Position numbers and translations under genes: made by a program. DNA of 64,000 bases from Acutalibacteraceae bacterium (GTDB lineage Bacteria; Bacillota; Clostridia; Oscillospirales; Acutalibacteraceae). Location of the stretch: contig JAZNGU010000055.1 of NCBI GenBank assembly GCA_045576615.1, positions 1,415-65,414 of the forward strand, read 5' to 3'. Shown here in pieces: positions 25,169-59,419 of this stretch (its first letter is position 1; each line of letters starts with the position of its first letter). The notes under the pieces were generated by a model. It was not told the DNA's origin. It ran no database searches and worked only from the letters and a program-made list of their open reading frames with translations.

Positions 25169-25290
25169 TTTTGTGGAGTTATACTAAAGTCAAGAAAAAC
25201 GGAGTGCAACAAATTGTAGCAAAATTGTTTTTCTGAAAAGTAATGACATTTTTTTATTAAAGTGTTTATATGGTTATAGAGGTGATGAAA

Positions 25291-26745
25291 ATGACTAAAA
25301 TTTCAAAAAACATCAAACGCTTACGAATGTTACAGAATATGAGTCAGGAGGAGCTGGCGCAGAAGCTCTTCGTTTCCCGTCAGGCAGTTTCGTCCTGGGA
25401 AAATAACCGGACTCAACCGGATTTGGAAATGATTCAAAAGATTTCCGAATTGTTCGGTATTCAGGTTGAAGAACTGCTTTATGGAGAAAAACGTAACACT
25501 CAATTAGAAGAAAGTGTCAGAACAAGTAAAACCTTGTTCATGGTATTCTCTATTTTAGGCTCGTTGTTTGTTGGTGCAGGCGTAATAATTCTTATGGTTG
25601 CTCTTTGGGACAAATTTCCTAATATTATAAAAGCAACAGTTTCATTTTTGCCTTTGCTTTTAGGTCAGGCAGGAGCAGTTTATACTTATAAGAAAAAATT
25701 CGATAATATCGCCTGGCGAGAGGGAGCATCAATTCTCTGGTCCGCAGGTGTTACTGCAACAGTGGGACTTTTGAGTATGGTTTTAGAGCTTCATTTAGGT
25801 GCTCTGATGTGCTTACTTATTGATGCAGTTTTAATACTTCCTATATTGTGTTTCTTTAAGGTTGCTTCACCTTTGGTATTCTACTACGGTTTTTCAATTG
25901 CAGGTTCAATAGGTGTTATGGAGTACACAAGGAGCGAGATATTAACAACAATTATAATGGTTGTTTTAGTTGGTGCAGGACTTCTTTTCACATTCTTCAA
26001 CAGAAAGAATGTAGCCGATGCAAGATATGAATATTCAACCTGGATTTCAGTTTTAGCGTCCTGTGCTATGGTAATCGCAATAAGCTTGTTTATTCTTGAT
26101 TGGGGTTATTTCTCCTTGCCACTGGCTCTTGCGGTTTGTATTTACGCATTAAATAAAAATGATGGCTGGTCAATGCCGTTTTACCCAATAGGTATTTTAG
26201 GAACAGCTTTAGCTTCAATAGCTTCAACCTATTTCCATTTGCAGGATGATGTCATTTATTCATACAGCGACATCAACAGATGGTTAAACTTGATTAAACC
26301 CGAAAGCATTATAACAATAATTTTAACAGTTGCAACTCTTGCAATCGGCTTTATTATAGGAGAAAAATCACTTGATAAGAACAAATATCAATCAATTTTC
26401 TGCTATTTTGGTGCAGCAAGTGCGGTAATTTCTTTAATCAGTTGTGGCTTTGAATCAGTAGAGTGGATAGGACTTGTTCTTTTCGCTATCACATTCGCAG
26501 AAGGTCTTATAATGCTAATTAAAGGCGCAAGTGAAAAGAACTACTTTAGTCTTAATGTTGGTTTGATAACACTTCTTGTATTGATGTTCTTTGTACTCTC
26601 CGCGTTCGATTGGAATATGGTAACAGTTGGTCTTATGTTCTTAATCAGTGGTTGCTCACTTTTCGGTGCAAACTTCTGCATCTCAAAGAAAATCAAAAAA
26701 GAACAGCTTGAATTGGAAAAGGCGGTGGAAGATGATGAAAAATAA
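25291..26745 (+). CDS. XRE-family HTH domain fused to a large polytopic membrane domain
   Basis: The N-terminal roughly 65 aa (IKRLRMLQNMSQEELAQKLFVSRQAVSSWENNRTQPDLEMIQKISELFG) is a Cro/C1-type HTH. About 10 to 12 hydrophobic helices follow. Start set to ATG 25291, behind AGAGGTG. Confidence 0.8.
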   Translation: MTKISKNIKRLRMLQNMSQEELAQKLFVSRQAVSSWENNRTQPDLEMIQKISELFGIQVEELLYGEKRNTQLEESVRTSKTLFMVFSILGSLFVGAGVIILMVALWDKFPNIIKATVSFLPLLLGQAGAVYTYKKKFDNIAWREGASILWSAGVTATVGLLSMVLELHLGALMCLLIDAVLILPILCFFKVASPLVFYYGFSIAGSIGVMEYTRSEILTTIIMVVLVGAGLLFTFFNRKNVADARYEYSTWISVLASCAMVIAISLFILDWGYFSLPLALAVCIYALNKNDGWSMPFYPIGILGTALASIASTYFHLQDDVIYSYSDINRWLNLIKPESIITIILTVATLAIGFIIGEKSLDKNKYQSIFCYFGAASAVISLISCGFESVEWIGLVLFAITFAEGLIMLIKGASEKNYFSLNVGLITLLVLMFFVLSAFDWNMVTVGLMFLISGCSLFGANFCISKKIKKEQLELEKAVEDDEK

Positions 26746-27433
26746 AAAAGCTACAATAATCCTTTCGATAATACTTGCAGTTCAGTTTATAATTCCTTTA
26801 GGTGTCTGGGGTTACGAAACTTATAAGAATAAGGAATTGGAAGAAAAAGGTCAGGAAATAAAACTGAATGTGGATTCCGTTTTCTGTGATCATCGGGGTA
26901 TTATATTCAGAAACGATGCTTTGGAAGAGTTTATTCATACGAGAAATATGCGCTATATTATTTTCGAAAATAACGAAAATGGATTTTCTACACCTACTGA
27001 AATTTCAGGCTTGCCTACAAATGATTTGTATATAAGTGCAAACAGATTGTATAGCTGGTATAGTGAGGATTGGGGTTTCAAATTTGAAAGCGAAAAAGCC
27101 ATGGATTTATATGATGATTACGGTTATCAGGAATTATATAACCGAGGAGTTGAACAAGCAAATATAAAACACGGCTTTTGTGAAGGTCCCGAAACTCAGG
27201 CTTATGCTGTCTTTAAGATTTATAAAAACAGATTTAAGGTAGTAAAAGTCTATATCGATGGAAAACCTGTTGATACAGTTATAGAAAAATATATGAATAA
27301 TGATTGGGATGATTCACGATATGAAGAAATCTATTATGATGATATTTACTATGACGATGGAATTGAAGATTATTATAAAGAATATTACGATGAAGAATTA
27401 GATGAATATGTAACTGAGCCTGTTTCGGCATAA
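26732..27433 (+). CDS. Single-pass membrane protein with an extracytoplasmic domain and a Tyr/Asp/Glu-rich C-terminal tail
   Basis: Starts MMKNKKATIILSIILAVQFIIPLGVWGY behind GGTGGA and overlaps the stop of the upstream gene. The track ORF 26648 extension has no RBS and lies inside the upstream CDS. Confidence 0.7.
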   Translation: MMKNKKATIILSIILAVQFIIPLGVWGYETYKNKELEEKGQEIKLNVDSVFCDHRGIIFRNDALEEFIHTRNMRYIIFENNENGFSTPTEISGLPTNDLYISANRLYSWYSEDWGFKFESEKAMDLYDDYGYQELYNRGVEQANIKHGFCEGPETQAYAVFKIYKNRFKVVKVYIDGKPVDTVIEKYMNNDWDDSRYEEIYYDDIYYDDGIEDYYKEYYDEELDEYVTEPVSA

Positions 27434-27435
27434 AA

Positions 27436-27468
27436 CAACACCCTGAACCATATTGGTTCGGGGTGTTG
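27436..27468. terminator. Bidirectional terminator (15 bp stem)
   Basis: CAACACCCTGAACCA-tat-TGGTTCGGGGTGTTG between convergent genes. Confidence 0.8.
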
Positions 27469-27471
27469 ACT

Positions 27472-28776
27472 TTATATTAGTTTTTCGAGTTCTTCTTCAA
27501 TCATCTTTTTCTCATATTCGCTTCTGTCGGAAAGCCTTGCAAAGCTTTCGCAACCGAAGGACATAAGAAATGTTGCAGAGCTTTTATTTAAAGTAATATT
27601 TGAAACAAAAATTTCAGTTTCGGGAGAGTTGCCGAATGCAGAAATCATAAACTCAACAACATTTGAAAGAGCATTTTGAACATCGGCAACATCGGTTTTT
27701 AGTTGCTCCATATCTCTCTTAACAGTTTCTCTCTCTTCTGCACTTGTTTCTTTATCCTTTAAAATTTTAAGTGCTTGTTTAATTAAATTGCTTTCGGTAA
27801 TAACTTCTTTTGCTTTAACTGTAATGCAGTCGCTTAAAATATTAATTAAGCCTAATTTTTCTGAAATACTTAAGTTTTTGACTTCCTCAATAATAGTGCT
27901 ATCAAAACAACCTTCAAGAATTTTTTTGGTATCAAAAATATCTTTAAGCTTTTTGAAAGCGAAATAATAGTTTGAAAAATCCTGCGCAACAGAAGGGTTC
28001 TGTATGTACTGTTCAATTAAAGATGCATCTATTTCAAGATTTTTCTTTTCATAAAGACACATTATTCTTGATAAATCTTCCCAACCACGAGCAGTAACAA
28101 AGCATTTAGCTGCAGGGGTGTTTTCAATTGAATAAAAACAGTCTTTTTTTATATCTAAAAAAGCAATTATTGCAGGATGAACATTGTTGTTGACAGCATA
28201 TTCTTTCCATACATCATAGCTTGCTTCAACATCAATTTTCTTTATTCTGTCAAGAGTTGCAATATCGTATTCTCTAACGGATTTGTTGTATTCAGGGGGA
28301 TTGCCTGCGGTAACAACAATCCAACCCTTCGGAACCTCGTGAGAGCCAAAGGTTTTATACTGCAAAAATCTTAACATTGATGGTGCAAGTGTTTCGGAAA
28401 CGCAGTTGATTTCGTCAAGAAATAAAATGCCTTCCTTTTTACCTGTAATTTCAATGTAGTTATAAACAGAAGCGAGAATTTCGCTCATAGTGTATTCTGA
28501 AACACTGTATTCTTTTTCATCAAAGGTTTTCTTTGCAATAAAAGGTAGACCTATTGCACTCTGCCTTGTGTGGTGGGTCATAGAATATGAAACAAGACCT
28601 ATGTTCAAATCGTTTGCAATCTGCTCCATAACTGCAGTTTTACCTATTCCGGGAGGGCCGTAAAGGAAAATAGGACGCTGTTTCTCCACGGGAATAAAAA
28701 ATGAACCGTCCTCGTTTTTTTCAAGGTATGCAATTACTGTGTTTTTAATATGTGTTGTTGCTTCTTTTATGTTCAT
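27472..28776 (-). CDS. MoxR/AAA_5-class AAA+ ATPase with an uncharacterised helical C-terminal half
   Basis: Walker A LYGPPGIGKTAV, Walker B ILFLDEIN, sensor/Arg-finger region VVTAGNPPEYN..V.E.D.ATLDRI. Start set to the second ATG (MNIKE...), 6 nt after AGGAGG. This ATG overlaps the TGA of the LRR gene (ATGA). Confidence 0.85.
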   Translation of the reverse strand: MNIKEATTHIKNTVIAYLEKNEDGSFFIPVEKQRPIFLYGPPGIGKTAVMEQIANDLNIGLVSYSMTHHTRQSAIGLPFIAKKTFDEKEYSVSEYTMSEILASVYNYIEITGKKEGILFLDEINCVSETLAPSMLRFLQYKTFGSHEVPKGWIVVTAGNPPEYNKSVREYDIATLDRIKKIDVEASYDVWKEYAVNNNVHPAIIAFLDIKKDCFYSIENTPAAKCFVTARGWEDLSRIMCLYEKKNLEIDASLIEQYIQNPSVAQDFSNYYFAFKKLKDIFDTKKILEGCFDSTIIEEVKNLSISEKLGLINILSDCITVKAKEVITESNLIKQALKILKDKETSAEERETVKRDMEQLKTDVADVQNALSNVVEFMISAFGNSPETEIFVSNITLNKSSATFLMSFGCESFARLSDRSEYEKKMIEEELEKLI

Positions 28777-30032
28777 AAGCATCCTCCTAAAATTTCTTCA
28801 TATAGGAAGTTGATTTCGTCAAATCCCGAGTTTTTCTTCTTTTGTGATAATATCTGTTGCAAATTTAAAAAGCCGTTTTTTGCTGATTTTTCATATAAAA
28901 ATGCACAATATTCAGTAGAAAGTTCAAAATTATCTATTATGTATTTTAAAACTTTTTCTTCGTTTTTCTCAGTGGCAAAGAGAGCGGCATATTCTACCGT
29001 TTCTGATAAATAACTTTTATAGTTAATTTCTTTTTGTTCGTTAAGCTCAATGGGAAAGGTGAGTCGAAATGCTGAAATTAAGGGCTTTTCTTTTTCTTCT
29101 GCTTTTTCGAATTGTGAATCATATTTTATAAAATCAAATTTACTGTTTTTAATTAGTGTGTCGTTTCTGTCATTATATGAATAAAAATGCTCGCTTATAA
29201 AAAGTCTGGCATTATATTTTTCTAAAGAAAGAATGTGGCGGTGGCAAGTTTTGTTTTCACAGGTTTGTTTGTATGTTAATGTGTTTTCAAAGCCTAAGCA
29301 TAATGTTTTTATGTCTTTTGGAACGGTAACTGTCGGGCATAGTTCATATCCACTTTTCTGAATAAAGCTGGAAGAAAACATTGTTCCGTTTATATTTGGC
29401 AAAATGCAAGGCGTTTCGGGAAATGCGGAAGCACCCACATATTCGGGCGTACCACTCCAGACAATGCTTGTAAGGGTTTTACAGCCTTCAAAAGCCATAT
29501 CGCCTATATGTTTGATGCCTTCCGGTAAAACAACGGATTTAAGACTTTGGCAACGCTTGAAAGCCTTGTTGTTTATTACTTTTAATGATTTCGGGAGAAC
29601 TATTTCTTTTAAATTAATGCATCCGCTGAAACACTCTTCTCCTATAATTTCAAGTTCCTCGGGTAAAACGATTGTTTCAAGCGAACGGCAGTTTTCAAAT
29701 AAATTGGGGGCTAATTCTTTTAATCCTTCGGGTAATTGAATTTTTTCAAGTTTAGTACAGCTTTTAAAAGCTCCCTCACCTAAATGTTTTATTGAAGGTG
29801 GGAGAGTAACACTTTTTAATGAGGAACAGTTCAAAAAAGCAAAATCCTGAATTTCTGTAAGCTTTTCTGAAAATATAATGTTCTTCAGAGAAGAGCAATT
29901 GCTGAACGCATAGCTTTTAACCGTTTTTACAGTATGAAACATCTCTACGTCTTCAATTTGTGAATTGAAGGCATATTTATCTGTTTTTATTACAGGCAAA
30001 AAGATTTTTAATGTTTTTTCTGCAGATTGCAA
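28773..30032 (-). CDS. Cytoplasmic BspA-type (LRR_5) leucine-rich-repeat protein with an unknown C-terminal domain
   Basis: 419 aa. About 7 to 8 tandem units of about 23 aa of the form F..C..L..I.LP..L..IG..AF. No signal peptide or TM helix. TTG start behind GAAAGGAAAG. Confidence 0.8.
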   Translation of the reverse strand: MQSAEKTLKIFLPVIKTDKYAFNSQIEDVEMFHTVKTVKSYAFSNCSSLKNIIFSEKLTEIQDFAFLNCSSLKSVTLPPSIKHLGEGAFKSCTKLEKIQLPEGLKELAPNLFENCRSLETIVLPEELEIIGEECFSGCINLKEIVLPKSLKVINNKAFKRCQSLKSVVLPEGIKHIGDMAFEGCKTLTSIVWSGTPEYVGASAFPETPCILPNINGTMFSSSFIQKSGYELCPTVTVPKDIKTLCLGFENTLTYKQTCENKTCHRHILSLEKYNARLFISEHFYSYNDRNDTLIKNSKFDFIKYDSQFEKAEEKEKPLISAFRLTFPIELNEQKEINYKSYLSETVEYAALFATEKNEEKVLKYIIDNFELSTEYCAFLYEKSAKNGFLNLQQILSQKKKNSGFDEINFLYEEILGGCL

Positions 30033-30051
30033 AATAACTTTCCTTTCGGAT

Positions 30052-31452
30052 TTATAAAGTGATTAGTTTGTTTTTATCTATGTATAGAGGGGTTGCCCAT
30101 AATGGTAAACGTTTTTTGGAAAAACCATTATCGTGAATTATAAAAACGTTTTTGTAAAGTGGTGTTTTTTCAGGGTAAATACCATCACCATCTGTGAAAT
30201 AAATAAGTCCGTTAAGCTCTTTCTTTGAGTTCTTTTCATAAAGCTCATCAACATATTGGAATACAGGGGTGAAGTTCGTTCCGCCAAAGCCGTGTAAAAC
30301 AAGATTATTGATGTAATCTTCAAGCTCTAACGGTGTTTTTATAATAACTACATCTTGTATGGTAGCATCACATTGTATAATATGTATTTCTGAACTTTTT
30401 TTAAAGAAATCAGTGGAGTTGAGTATTGAATAAGTTTTTCTTATAAACCCCTCAACAATTTCACCTTTTACAGAGCCGGATGTATCAATTGCTATAACAA
30501 GTTTGTTGATTTTTCCGCTTTCTGCATATTCAAGGGGTTCAATTAACGGAATGTTTTCGTAAAGCTTAAGACCATATGTGTAATAAATATAGTCGAATTC
30601 ATCATCGTTGATTTCAAGAGTTTCATCGGTTTCAATAAACCTTTTCAGTAAATCTGAATAATCATATTCTTCACGGGTTACGGATTCAAAAATCTGGATT
30701 CCTTCGCCAAAATTAGAACCCATTTGAGATGGGAAAACATCCAAATCACGAATGATTTGTTTTGTGATTTCACGCCATGCATCCTGTGAATTTTCTGCAT
30801 TGGCGTTTGAAAACTTGCTCAAGGTTTTTCCGCCGTTTTGAGATTCTCCGTTTCGGTCATCTTCCTGCTTGTAAATTGAACGAGCCTCAATCTCAGTGGG
30901 ATCATCGTCATCATTTATGCTGAAAAGAGCATTTTCATACCAAGTCTTATGATGGTCAACCAAAAACAAGTCTGCGTATAGTTCAATATCATTGGTTGAA
31001 AGTTTTTTCTCTGTTAAATAGTAATAAATATTTTCTGCAGTGAAGTTTTTAATTCCGTCAGAAAAATGTTTAATGACACTGTTCTGTGTGGCGGATTTCT
31101 CTGTTTGAGAGCAGGAAAGCTTTGCATCATTAATTATTTTTTCAACGCACATATCACAAGCTAAGTTCCAAAGTTTTTTGTTTCTAAAATCTGTGTTATA
31201 GATATGTAGCAGAGAGCAGTGTAATAAAGAATGTAGTAATAGTCTTGGGATATTGTTTTTGTTGGTTTTGTATTTCTTGCATATATCTTGGGGTGAGTAA
31301 TAAAAATCATTGCCGTTTGTGTAGTTGCATTCTCTTTCTGATAGCTTGAATTTTAAAGCATTTATTGCTCTTATAAATGGTGGGAGTTCACGGCAGACCG
31401 ATTTTTTGCCTTGGTTTATAATTTTTTCGGCAAGTTTATTTACATCGGACAC
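30052..31452 (-). CDS. DUF2201-like protein: degenerate metallopeptidase-like N-domain plus a VWA domain with an intact MIDAS
   Basis: HSLLHCSLLH at the position of the family HExxH. VIAIDTSGSV (DxSGS), GGTNF and FTDGDG MIDAS elements. The preferred start is GTG 31452, 7 nt after GGGGG. The track start ATG 31530 has no RBS, so the 5' end is uncertain. Confidence 0.8.
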   Translation of the reverse strand: MSDVNKLAEKIINQGKKSVCRELPPFIRAINALKFKLSERECNYTNGNDFYYSPQDICKKYKTNKNNIPRLLLHSLLHCSLLHIYNTDFRNKKLWNLACDMCVEKIINDAKLSCSQTEKSATQNSVIKHFSDGIKNFTAENIYYYLTEKKLSTNDIELYADLFLVDHHKTWYENALFSINDDDDPTEIEARSIYKQEDDRNGESQNGGKTLSKFSNANAENSQDAWREITKQIIRDLDVFPSQMGSNFGEGIQIFESVTREEYDYSDLLKRFIETDETLEINDDEFDYIYYTYGLKLYENIPLIEPLEYAESGKINKLVIAIDTSGSVKGEIVEGFIRKTYSILNSTDFFKKSSEIHIIQCDATIQDVVIIKTPLELEDYINNLVLHGFGGTNFTPVFQYVDELYEKNSKKELNGLIYFTDGDGIYPEKTPLYKNVFIIHDNGFSKKRLPLWATPLYIDKNKLITL

Positions 31453-31560
31453 AGTCAAGCCCCCTATTCTTTTAAAACACAGATAATTTAATGGGTATAG
31501 CCAATTTTCTTGAAATTTGACCATACCCATTAATTAAACAATATTAATATTAATTATTTG

Positions 31561-58224: not shown

Positions 58225-58468
58225 AATAAAACCTCACTTATTTTCATAATCAATATAATTTTATCAAATGTAAAAAGAAAAAACAATAAAAGTTTGAAAT
58301 ATCGTGAATTTGTAATAATTTAACCCCTTGTATTTGTGTAAAAATTCGAGTTTCAATGACAAAATAACAAAAAATTAACATATAAGTTAAAAAATGCTAT
58401 GTACTTTTTTGAAAATATAATGTATAATGACAAAGTATGAACAGAAATCATCCTTGCGAGGTTATTAT

Positions 58469-59419
58469 ATGAAAAACACAACTAAAATCATTATCTCACT
58501 TTGTGTTGCATTGCTTATTGTGGCAACTGTGCTTGTTGTAAGCCTTGTTCAGAATAGCAACTCAGGTAAAGAAACCACAACCAAACCCGGTTATTCATTG
58601 CAGGCAACAAAAGCACCGTCAACAACAGGTGAAACAGAATCATGGGTTGACCTTGAGCAAATGGCAAGTGAGCTTGCAACTGCAACTGATACGACCGACC
58701 CCGCTGATACCACAACAGATACAACTGTTGCACCGGTGATTCAAACAACAATTGTTTACATAGTTTATTCAGAAACAAATGTAGCACCGCAACCTACCGT
58801 AAGCGCTACTAAAGATAACAATGCACCTGAAATGTCTGAGTATAAATATACTATTGATAAGAGTACCGGCAGCGCAGTAATCAATAAATATCTGGGCGAC
58901 GATTCTGTTGTTTGGATTCCTGAAAAAATCAGTGGTTATACTGTATCAGGGATTGGTAGTAAATGCTTTGAAAAGCAAAGCTTAAAAGGTGTAGTTATTC
59001 CTGAAACAGTAACAAGTGTCGGAAATAATGCATTCCAGGGTTGCACCAATTTAACCTCAGTTACTTTTAAGGGGGCACCTTCCACAATAACGGTTGGTAA
59101 TAATGCTTTCCAGAATTGTGTTAATCTCAAATCTATTAATCTTCCTGCGGCTAAGACAATCGGTAGCCTTGCTTTTGATAGCTGTACTTCTTTGGAAAAA
59201 ATCTCTCTTGAGTTTGGCACAGAGCAAATCGGTGATTGGTGTTTCCGTAACTGCACCAATCTTAAAGAGGTTGAAATTCCCGAAAGTGTAACTGTTATTG
59301 GTCAGGGTGCTTTCAGTGGTGAGCACAGAGAAGATATGGTTATTTACTGTGTTGAGGGTTCTGCCGGTCACGAGGCGGCTGACAGATACGGCATTAAAGC
59401 CGAATTTGTGGCATATTAA
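58469..59419 (+). CDS. Membrane-anchored surface protein with a Thr-rich linker and BspA-type LRR_5 repeats
   Basis: Start ATG 58469, behind GAGGT. N-terminal TM helix, T/P/A-rich spacer, then repeated F..C..L..V.. units. Confidence 0.8.
   Translation: MKNTTKIIISLCVALLIVATVLVVSLVQNSNSGKETTTKPGYSLQATKAPSTTGETESWVDLEQMASELATATDTTDPADTTTDTTVAPVIQTTIVYIVYSETNVAPQPTVSATKDNNAPEMSEYKYTIDKSTGSAVINKYLGDDSVVWIPEKISGYTVSGIGSKCFEKQSLKGVVIPETVTSVGNNAFQGCTNLTSVTFKGAPSTITVGNNAFQNCVNLKSINLPAAKTIGSLAFDSCTSLEKISLEFGTEQIGDWCFRNCTNLKEVEIPESVTVIGQGAFSGEHREDMVIYCVEGSAGHEAADRYGIKAEFVAY

Follow-up and report, generated by a model that had tools for sequence, protein, structure and literature searches.

We analysed a 64,000-nucleotide stretch of the genome of an Acutalibacteraceae bacterium (contig JAZNGU010000055.1, positions 1,415 to 65,414 of the forward strand; hereafter the window), which carries on its minus strand three consecutive genes encoding a DUF2201-type VWA protein, a BspA-type leucine-rich repeat (LRR) protein, and a MoxR-class AAA+ ATPase. 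The three-gene set is a self-contained operon that is inherited as a unit and is widespread in gut Clostridia, and the sequences of its junctions predict that the genes are translationally coupled. The best reading of the data is that the trio encodes a three-part AAA+ remodelling machine, namely an LRR-bearing version of the MoxR-vWA remodelling systems. By analogy with these systems, the LRR protein is most likely the target-binding subunit, and we assign a probability of roughly 55% to the more specific reading that it docks on the VWA protein and presents the bound target to the ATPase. An earlier sequence-only reading of the window had described the cassette as a candidate uncharacterised three-component system and had named as a check whether ATPase and VWA pairs of related genomes carry the LRR gene. 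The outcome of this check was strongly positive, and the system is truly three-component.

Homologous loci were collected by scanning one genome per GTDB species, which gave at least 573 loci, and the best 80 of them (L001-L080) were inspected. These loci were annotated by tblastn and chaining of open reading frames (ORFs) with simple ORF calls, and LRR genes were found by BLAST with the window protein, so that the counts of LRR and VWA genes are lower bounds. The 80 loci come from metagenome-assembled genomes of Oscillospiraceae, Acutalibacteraceae, Lachnospiraceae, and Erysipelotrichaceae, from a few isolates, and from Adlercreutzia, and the ATPase family as a whole is large (at least 8000 homologues at E≤0.001). 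Isolates of Pseudoflavonifractor capillosus and Blautia are among the cultivable carriers. The VWA gene was present in the same co-directional block as the ATPase gene in 67 of the 80 loci, and most of the exceptions are cut off by the end of a contig. In 58/80 loci, an LRR_5 gene of the same direction lay immediately beside the VWA/ATPase pair, and LRR genes filled 71 of 136 adjacent slots versus 30 of the 400 remaining genes (odds ratio 13.5, Fisher's p=4e-27); several of these 30 'background' genes were further members of the same arrays. Among the 58 loci, the LRR gene was located only between the VWA and ATPase genes in 23, only downstream in 15, only upstream in 11, and in mixed positions in 9. 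The association spans ATPase identities of 43-86% and several families, and start/stop overlaps of 4 nt are common between the cassette genes according to the simple ORF calls. Since an LRR_5 gene adjoins the pair in 58 of the 80 loci, the LRR gene is not a chance insertion.

The third gene almost always encodes a leaderless repeat or binding protein, which is usually a BspA-type LRR protein and otherwise an ankyrin-repeat (Ank), DUF6273, or DUF4132 protein. When the slot contained no LRR_5 gene, Pfam assigned ankyrin repeats in L016 and L021 and DUF6273 in L028 and L054, with L058 and L069 alike. A DUF4132 protein replaced the LRR protein in L053 and also occurred inside the LRR arrays of L025 and L037. 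Arrays of two to six LRR paralogues were found in L023, L025, L027, L037, and L051. The alternation of LRR_5 with Ank, DUF6273, and DUF4132 in one slot fits a variable recognition subunit. A hydrophobicity scan of 162 associated proteins detected a signal-peptide-like N-terminus in two of ~100 operon-associated LRR proteins (L018|580 and L077|4004), and most of these proteins start with a cytosolic-looking LRR cap, 'MSDFVIENGVLxKYxG...'.

The third components also share their C-terminal ends. A helix of the pattern '..A[LF]L[LM]xYK[NE]' recurs and is followed, 10-20 residues on, by a terminal peptide of Gly, acidic, and hydrophobic residues, as in ...ALLLNYKNENFGDFDPMAEFTLD, ...YLIRYKQEHFGDEDIFAGFEL, and ...AILLEYRDKHLGYFHADDEFEL. 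A hidden Markov model (HMM) of 24 residues, built from 12 seeds and iterated, was searched against 1345 ORFs from the loci and the window. This set consisted of the window in all six frames, of plus-strand ORFs of the loci from 90 aa upwards, and of their called minus-strand ORFs from 80 aa upwards. The HMM matched 23 of the 1345 ORFs, including LRR, Ank, and DUF4132 proteins; 22 of the matches lie in ATPase blocks and one lies just past the gap cutoff, and no match was found among the ~1000 other ORFs of this database. The tail is specific to ATPase/VWA operons. A loose regular expression for the tail matched 20 of 162 associated proteins versus 4 of 301. Because this expression is unspecific and also matches the C-terminus of a GH5 protein, the HMM is the better evidence. 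The three DUF4132 proteins (L025 12213..13733, L037 10787..12307, and L053 4142..5500) end in the same tail, 'LLLNYKN...DPMAEFTLD'.

Orthologues of the window LRR protein retain a tail of the form 'TG[FLI]xE[IT][DNE]xΦΦ', in which G403 and E406 are conserved in at least 90% of 37 orthologues. When a profile of the C-terminal 215 aa of the window protein was compared with the other C-terminal modules, hhalign gave a probability of 79% (E=1.6e-5) over '...YEKSAKNGFLNLQQILSQKK'. At the sequence level this C-terminal domain is clade-specific, and an exhaustive phmmer search of 1.84 billion proteins returned 12 representative clusters. Longer relatives of the LRR protein carry a 'D.F..F.F[DE]' peptide after each domain copy. 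In P0245, P0247, and P0248 (872-909 aa), one polypeptide contains two tandem copies of the whole unit, which consists of the LRR, the helical module, and the acidic-aromatic peptide. LRR relatives of 870-909 aa were considered as Rosetta-stone fusions with the ATPase and were rejected, their length being due to internal duplications.

The LRR protein of the window matched Pfam LRR_5 (PF13306) with 1.3e-55. Its AlphaFold2 (AF2) model (predicted local distance difference test, pLDDT, 86.8) had BspA-type LRR proteins as the best Foldseek matches (4fs7, 6mlx (TpLRR), 4gt6, and 4cp6; E 1e-10 to 1e-8), which bear out the BspA/TpLRR/PcpA fold. The protein contains no signal peptide, no N-terminal hydrophobic segment, and no transmembrane (TM) segment. 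The earlier description of a BspA-type LRR_5 protein devoid of signal peptide and TM helix was thus right, and its count of 7-8 repeats was too low, as the AF2 model shows ~9-10 strands. The 'unknown domain' of ~200 aa that had been assigned to this protein turned out to be a continuation of the LRR followed by a helical module (aa 301-416). In the AF2 model the solenoid runs on as an irregular beta/alpha cap up to ~aa 300, and residues 301-386 form three to four short-helix pairs, after which a long last helix follows. On inspection of the model, the helical pairs look ankyrin-like. The last 20 residues are of low confidence, as a docking peptide would be. The other LRR_5 protein in the window (58427..59419, plus strand) carries a TM anchor at its N-terminus (KIIISLCVALLIVATVLVVSLV) and a stalk rich in Thr and is of the classical exported kind; neither the helical module nor the tail at the C-terminus of the operon-linked protein is present in it. 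Because its N-terminal membrane anchor is clear, the contrast drawn previously between a leaderless and an exported LRR protein in the window is correct.

The ATPase has all catalytic motifs of an AAA+ protein of the MoxR/AAA_5 class and is predicted to be active. Pfam AAA_5 (PF07728) matched with 9.3e-9 and 35.8 bits (cutoff 22) over profile positions 2-138 of 139, and AAA matched with 5e-9. The Walker A (GPPGIGKT), Walker B, and Arg-finger regions, which had been read as intact, are present and invariant in homologues (G40 in at least 90%), and N159 (sensor-1 Asn), R177, and R230 (Arg finger and sensor-2 Arg) are likewise invariant in 41 homologues. By blastp the protein matched annotated MoxR ATPases that adjoin DUF2201 VWA genes with E ~1e-24, the tblastn and blastp values ranging from 1e-17 to 1e-25, and no NCBIfam MoxR-type model reached its cutoff for the ATPase. 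The insert after strand 2 is strongly conserved in the 41-sequence alignment (mean identity 68%), in which Y64-A74 and G76-F79 are invariant, S63 is conserved in at least 90%, and I75 is less conserved. Residues 70-79 form a flexible loop since pLDDT is below 50 there. In the AF2 model, which is of moderate confidence (pLDDT 77.9), this conserved flexible insert is located at the helix-2-insert position, and a short hairpin (~142-147) precedes the strand 152-158. The insert is a candidate helix-2 insert or pore loop. The C-terminal extension has two parts, a long helical hairpin (H304-341 and H346-381) and a terminal bundle that is conserved, SPE..IF.SNITLNK..A.FL..FGC. The length of the hairpin differs among homologues of 419-525 aa, in which the coiled-coil extension has ~100-180 aa, and the extension is not present in the canonical MoxR partners of ~340 aa. 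That this helical part belongs to no recognised family holds, although it comprises ~185 aa rather than the ~230 aa estimated from the sequence. Among the better-superposing Foldseek matches of the ATPase model was NorQ, with template modelling scores of 0.45-0.48 normalised to the target (9qh4 and 9qh8).

The VWA protein matched Pfam DUF2201_N (PF13203) with 7e-9 and 36.1 bits (cutoff 23.2) and DUF2201 (PF09967) with 6e-12 and 46.2 bits (cutoff 26.4), both domains being in the usual order. The combination of a DUF2201_N-like domain with a VWA domain that has a complete metal-ion-dependent adhesion site (MIDAS) was therefore described properly beforehand, and 62-64 of the 65 family members conserve the MIDAS residues D349, S351, S353, T418, and D447. 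The description of the zincin-like domain has to be corrected, because its motif reads HSLLH and the catalytic Glu of HExxH is lost. All of the 65 aligned family members have H[S/A/M/T/I/V/L]xxH at this place, and H100, H104, H109, and D126 are invariant in the same alignment. The canonical DUF2201 partners on Synechocystis and Thermus plasmids retain the Glu (LHELLH and LHEALH). Judging from these motifs, the Clostridial DUF2201 proteins form a predicted pseudo-peptidase subfamily, in which the zincin would be catalytically dead while keeping its metal ligands. Long VWA proteins (L059, L016, and L073) were inspected as possible Rosetta-stone fusions and have merely longer linkers or N-termini. 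A MoxR-vWA core with a variable third component has already been published, and the trio with a DUF2201 pseudo-peptidase is new among the sources that we searched. Its new features are the operon-specific tail of the third component, the loss of the zincin Glu throughout the family, and the coiled-coil extension of the ATPase.

In the mechanism that we propose, the ATPase ring would pull on the VWA adaptor, by analogy with CbbQ/CbbO, NorQ/NorD, and Rea1, and the LRR protein would be an exchangeable subunit for target recognition. The LRR protein would dock via its C-terminal helical module and its Gly/acidic/hydrophobic tail, and would be received at one of two sites, the metal of the MIDAS or the zincin cleft that has lost its Glu; the latter may be a natural substrate trap, like the classical E-to-X substrate-trap mutant. 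The LRR face would hold a cytoplasmic protein target, which would be remodelled, released, or disassembled upon ATP hydrolysis. A more far-reaching version can be put forward only tentatively and is rather doubtful as a whole: leaderless LRR, Ank, DUF6273, and DUF4132 proteins would be interchangeable cytoplasmic receptors that plug by a common tail, held by the MIDAS or by the 'trap-mutant' zincin cleft, into a MoxR-VWA engine for NLR-like recognition or target-directed disassembly with no conventional effector. As to the targets, the paralogue arrays and the domain swapping of the third subunit make us lean towards recognition of variable, possibly invader-derived proteins, and the genomic context, which is of the housekeeping type, points to a dedicated function in assembly or quality control.

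Several observations weigh against the docking of a target-binding LRR protein on a MoxR-VWA engine. The tail of the window LRR protein itself was missed by the short HMM because it is too divergent, and its link to the modules of the other third components depends on the profile match of 79% probability. In L023, L027, and L032 the helical module is N-terminal, the LRR comes after it, and there is no terminal tail. No adjoining LRR gene was found in 22/80 loci by the crude BLAST criterion, and the 80 inspected loci are the best of the at least 573. Foldseek assigned the ATPase model to AAA+ proteins in general, since FtsH, Vps4, RFC, and NorQ scored alike, so that MoxR was not separable from other AAA+ clades, and the C-terminal extension was not identified. 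Neither Pfam nor PADLOC found an effector domain in the trio. For the ATPase, PADLOC-DB v2 gave alignments with IetA and DolB of ~30 residues around the P-loop, and for the LRR and VWA proteins it gave none.

The main rival of the adaptor reading, which we consider unlikely but serious, is that the LRR, Ank, DUF6273, and DUF4132 proteins are substrates that are folded, assembled, or metallated by a dedicated MoxR-VWA chaperone, the tail being a client tag. Characterised MoxR-VWA pairs mature or reactivate a protein that is encoded nearby, as CbbQO does for Rubisco, NorQD for cNOR, and CoxDE for CODH, and each thus serves one cognate complex. The same idea agrees with the confinement of the tail to operon-encoded proteins, with the mostly housekeeping context, and with the retention of metal ligands in the zincin domain. 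A chaperone role in virion assembly and processing has also been proposed for the MoxR and metallopeptidase-vWA pair noted in jumbo phages (Iyer et al. 2021, PMC7824862). However, the clients would be scaffolds that differ in structure, namely a beta-solenoid, alpha-repeats, and a lectin-like domain, and that normally fold unaided, and relatives among the BspA LRR proteins, the exported one of the window among them, exist without such a system. Furthermore, up to six paralogues per single ATPase/VWA pair resemble interchangeable adaptors and not one cognate client.

A role in immunity is somewhat improbable on the present data, and it would be compatible with the adaptor reading, although neither an effector nor an island context stands behind it. 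According to this explanation, the cassette is a split-NLR-like system against phages or other invaders: the LRR protein would bind a protein of the invader, and the MoxR-VWA core would set the threshold at which it either arrests growth or neutralises the target directly. The conflict systems predicted in PMC7159879 and PMC8195603 have as their theme a MoxR-vWA core whose third component varies, and the third components of the Clostridial loci are swapped and expanded into arrays. In L001-L012, the LRR protein, the N-domain of the VWA protein, and the C-domain of the ATPase change faster than the ATPase core (identities of 42-79% vs 74-94%). The cassette is slightly richer in AT than its flanks, and a 2025 preprint reports that a phage MoxR ATPase is required to overcome host defence, which indicates that this protein class takes part in conflicts. 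On the other hand, no nuclease, TIR, protease, or pore-forming domain is present; the only candidate, the zincin, is predicted to be catalytically dead. PADLOC matched the P-loop only, and the match to the bpMoxR profile was below its cutoff. Housekeeping genes make up most of the 87 genes directly beside the cassette in the different species, a handful being Cas1, Cas6, methyltransferase, and WYL genes, and a defence-island context is not convincing. In the closest clade (L001-L005) the cassette is syntenic and vertically inherited, and the hosts are unicellular Clostridia, whereas the two papers describe a bias towards multicellular bacteria. The likeness to NLR proteins that had been suggested for the cassette is kept as an analogy only, because the ATPase is not of the STAND type (P-loop matches below cutoff).

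Membership of a known defence system or another named family was rejected, since PADLOC and NCBIfam gave only P-loop-level matches; in NCBIfam no characterised family matched any of the trio above its cutoff. The trio was not described in the full-text literature searched on DUF2201, DUF4132, MoxR/vWA/LRR, BspA/AAA/VWA, and MoxR anti-phage. The absence of a characterised operon that matches the trio in PADLOC, NCBIfam, and this literature agrees with its earlier description as uncharacterised. A plasmid origin was likewise rejected, as there were no close plasmid matches and only distant MoxR genes. The seven best 'phage' matches are unannotated virome contigs, and the one inspected (L081) is plainly a bacterial chromosome, so that a phage origin was discarded. 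L081 (GenBank MT835935.1) and six similar records labelled 'UNVERIFIED: Bacteriophage sp.' are bacterial chromosome fragments; L081 carries genes for an ABC exporter, a radical SAM enzyme, NUDIX, M18 aminopeptidase, DegV, and a Mur ligase-family protein (Mur_ligase_M/C), and next to them LRR_5, VWA, ATPase, and class IV aminotransferase genes.

It is very improbable that the tail is a targeting signal by which the MoxR-VWA pair delivers leaderless BspA-type proteins, independently of Sec, to a destination such as the surface of the spore or of the cell. The classical location of BspA-type LRR_5 proteins is the surface, and the best Foldseek matches of the window protein are annotated as cell-surface proteins and NCBIfam gave an adhesin match for it. 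The associated LRR proteins have no signal peptides and yet have a conserved C-terminal peptide, and most of the hosts, judging from the listed taxa, are spore-forming Clostridia. However, neither a membrane channel nor a conserved TM component goes with the trio (small TM ORFs occur in just 2-3 loci), the pair is also present in Adlercreutzia, a non-sporulating host, and no precedent was found in the searched literature. Finally, a chance landing of an abundant LRR_5 gene between an ordinary MoxR-VWA pair with no functional link can be excluded, since the great number of LRR_5 genes in these genomes (2577 matches at E≤1e-10, a second copy being within the window) is outweighed by the adjacent-slot enrichment, the persistence of the association over distant ATPases and several families, the start/stop overlaps, the operon-specific tail, and the lack of signal peptides in the associated proteins, unlike the exported kind.

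The features of the cassette are listed in Table 1. As described previously, the three minus-strand genes are tightly packed, and the ORFs, the gap between the first two, the ATGA overlap, and the AGGAGG in front of it can all be read in the sequence. The stop codon of the VWA gene and the TTG start codon of the LRR gene are 19 nt apart, and AAAGGAAAG is located upstream of the TTG in the raw sequence. The LRR protein and the ATPase correspond to the NCBI-derived records P0123 (419 aa) and P0001 (434 aa), respectively, each with 100% identity and coverage and equal length. The VWA ORF of 492 aa is separated by only 30 nt (31531..31560) from the stop of the GH5 gene and has no ribosome-binding site. 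A GTG at 31452 is preceded by AGGGGG at a distance of 7 nt, and a start there gives a protein of 466 aa. Since the VWA homologues are 464-482 aa long and AGGGGG precedes this GTG, it is the probable start of the VWA protein. Such a start leaves a spacer of ~108 nt, which could accommodate a promoter of the cassette.

Table 1. Features of the three-gene cassette, in window coordinates
Feature	Position	Strand	Details
Gene 1, DUF2201-type zincin-like + VWA protein	30052..31530	minus	492 aa as ORF
Zincin-like (DUF2201_N) domain, aa 69-216	30883..31326	minus	Pfam
Degenerate zincin motif H100-S-L-L-H104-C-S-L-L-H109	31204..31233	minus	HExxH Glu replaced, His ligands retained
VWA domain, aa 344-467	30130..30501	minus	Pfam
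MIDAS D349-T-S351-G-S353	30472..30486	minus	plus T418 and D447
Gene 2, leaderless BspA-type LRR protein	28773..30032	minus	419 aa, TTG start
LRR_5 solenoid, aa 19-220	29373..29978	minus	~9-10 repeats, 23-residue period (DSSP strands in AF2 model; Pfam stretches)
C-terminal helical module, aa 301-416	28785..29132	minus	AF2 secondary structure
Flexible C-terminal tail, aa 400-419 (KKNSGFDEINFLYEEILGGCL)	28776..28835	minus	pLDDT 55-58
Predicted translational-coupling junction	28773..28788	minus	AGGAGG 28783..28788, 6-nt spacer, ATGA 28776..28773 = LRR stop / ATPase start overlap
Gene 3, MoxR-class AAA+ ATPase	27472..28776	minus	434 aa from ATG
Walker A G40-PPGIGK-T47	28636..28659	minus	P41-A48 invariant, G40 at least 90% (41 homologues)
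Insert after strand 2, S63-YSMTHHTRQSAIGLP-F79	28540..28590	minus	17 residues 63-79, SYSMTHHTRQSAIGLPF
Walker B I117-LFLDEI-N124	28405..28428	minus	invariant in homologues
C-terminal helical extension, ~aa 250-434 (~185 aa)	27475..28029	minus	AF2 model
Hairpin, 15-bp stem	27436..27468		between convergent genes, directly after ATPase stop; T-run on minus strand

The hairpin next to the cassette has the appearance of a terminator shared by the two convergent genes, in line with the bidirectional terminator noted before. The AT-richness that had been noticed by eye is real but modest: the GC content is 0.337 in the cassette vs 0.371 in the window, which is the 3.7th percentile among windows of the same size, and GC at third codon positions is 0.28-0.31 in the cassette genes vs 0.36-0.39 in the two upstream genes. 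No terminator was found in the window between the cassette and these two genes (GH5 cellulase-family and metallophosphoesterase-fn3), which are syntenic with the cassette in L001-L005 only; in this closest clade, the cassette is flanked by the GH5/metallophosphoesterase pair and der. On the opposite side, the window contains a plus-strand gene for a multi-pass membrane protein with HTH_3 and DUF2157 (25270..26745) and an overlapping plus-strand ORF (26648..27433) that has no Pfam match and a C-terminus rich in Tyr, Asp, and Glu, and that converges on the hairpin. These two are kept beside the cassette in L001-L003.

Additional small genes accompany the cassette in some loci. A small protein is encoded directly upstream of, and overlapping, the ATPase gene in L025 (6474..7004), L062 (1902..2351), and L037 (5373..5843); these proteins have a single TM segment and 149-176 aa in two of the loci and are helical with 156 aa in one. 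In some variants of the system, they could serve as accessory or effector-like components. In the second-closest clade (L006-L012), a gene for a protein of 204-224 aa is always located co-directionally 3' of the ATPase gene at a distance of 21-75 nt, and one representative (L006 8460..9074) gave a single match, to Cytidylate_kin2 (cytidylate-kinase-like). This gene may reflect simple synteny or may be a clade-specific fourth component.

Few AAA+ systems are as widespread and as little understood as the MoxR-VWA pairs, and how these select their targets is a long-standing question. The combination of a fixed engine, a swappable repeat subunit, a short tail, and two candidate receptor sites makes target selection testable. 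Leaderless BspA-type LRR proteins constitute a very large and neglected class in gut Clostridia and are mostly annotated as 'surface antigens'; those 'BspA-like surface antigens' that are operon-linked should be reread as predicted cytoplasmic partners of an ATPase. Because the loci were found in gut Clostridia of humans and animals, in at least 573 genomes at the species level, the function matters to gut microbiome biology, whether it is defence or assembly.

The closest annotated relatives are plasmid-borne pairs in Synechocystis and Thermus, each with a 'MoxR family ATPase' of ~340 aa and a 'VWA-like domain-containing protein'. Against the pSYSA pair of Synechocystis, the ATPase matched with E ~1e-24 and the VWA protein with E=1e-14 over the full length, and the zincin and VWA architecture and the MIDAS are common to both. 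Among phage families in PHROGs, the ATPase matched phrog_1297 with 9e-42 and the VWA protein matched phrog_1314 with 9e-36, and 572 phage records were matched. The phrog_1297/phrog_1314 pair is common in large lytic phages of Escherichia, Pseudomonas, and Vibrio. The label of phrog_1314, 'HNH endonuclease', looks like a mis-annotation, as this family matches the whole zincin-VWA protein. The canonical pairs differ in four respects: the ATPase gene precedes the VWA gene, whereas the order is VWA then ATPase in the Clostridial family; the metallopeptidase-vWA proteins keep HELLH or HEALH, whereas the Glu is lost in the Clostridial family; the coiled-coil C-terminal extension of the ATPase is absent from them; and the Clostridial unit includes a third gene for a repeat protein. 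The function of the canonical pairs is known from proposals only.

The ternary conflict systems of the MoxR-vWA type (Kaur et al. 2020, PMC7159879; 2021, PMC8195603) share with the Clostridial system a constant MoxR and vWA core and a variable third component made of interaction repeats. Their third component is VMAP, iSTAND, iSTAND2, TERNS3, FtsH, or a beta-propeller, none of which occurs here, where LRR_5, Ank, DUF6273, and DUF4132 are found instead. Effectors are fused to the vWA protein in the Kaur systems, most of which are described mainly from multicellular bacteria (cyanobacteria, actinobacteria, and others), whereas the hosts here are unicellular gut Clostridia. In the window protein the VWA domain is itself C-terminal and stops at residue 467 of 492, so that it carries no effector as a C-terminal fusion, and neither effector domains nor EAD- or Death-like adaptor domains were found in the three proteins by Pfam and PADLOC. 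The beta-propeller-subtype profile bpMoxR aligned with residues 32-85 only of the window ATPase (E=3e-4, 20.4 bits, cutoff 27), and some ATPase homologues carry a precomputed PF20030 match. Neither PMC7159879 nor PMC8195603 describes an LRR_5 or Clostridial version; in the former, 'LRR' occurs once, 'leucine-rich' never, and 'Firmicutes' four times, with one passage on GAP1-N2 GTPase systems.

Like NLR and STAND receptors, the cassette unites an LRR and a P-loop nucleoside triphosphatase in one functional unit. The nucleoside triphosphatase is, however, a MoxR-type AAA+ protein, the LRR is of the BspA/LRR_5 type and resides on a separate polypeptide, and there is no effector or death-fold domain. 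STAND profiles aligned with the P-loop only and below their cutoffs, as seen with NB-ARC (15.7 bits, cutoff 23.5), NACHT (13.9 bits, cutoff 26.7), and nSTAND3/6. The uncharacterised yehF-yehQ cluster of E. coli (L084; WGR, DUF4132, MoxR YehL, YehM, VWA YehP, and SWIM YehQ) combines MoxR and VWA with DUF4132, as do some of the loci. Kinship was rejected because the window ATPase and VWA protein have no detectable similarity to YehL and YehP (E>1), and the resemblance is an analogy only; the yeh proteins are also devoid of the tail motif and the yeh cluster of an LRR_5 protein. By analogy, the sharing of DUF4132 possibly reflects a deeper functional parallel.

CbbQ/CbbO, NorQ/NorD, and Rea1 combine an AAA_5-class ring ATPase with a VWA adaptor, the MIDAS of which binds an acidic residue of the target. 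The window system shares with them the AAA_5-class ATPase and the VWA partner, and its conserved loop is a candidate for the helix-2 insert. At the sequence level, no NCBIfam or other match to the CbbQ, NorQ, and GvpN families was obtained, apart from GvpN with E=0.037 over the P-loop, and the VWA partners of CbbQ, NorQ, and Rea1 are devoid of a zincin domain, unlike the window VWA protein. CbbQO and NorQD each serve one fixed metabolic client, whereas the system of the window is paired with a variable repeat-protein partner.

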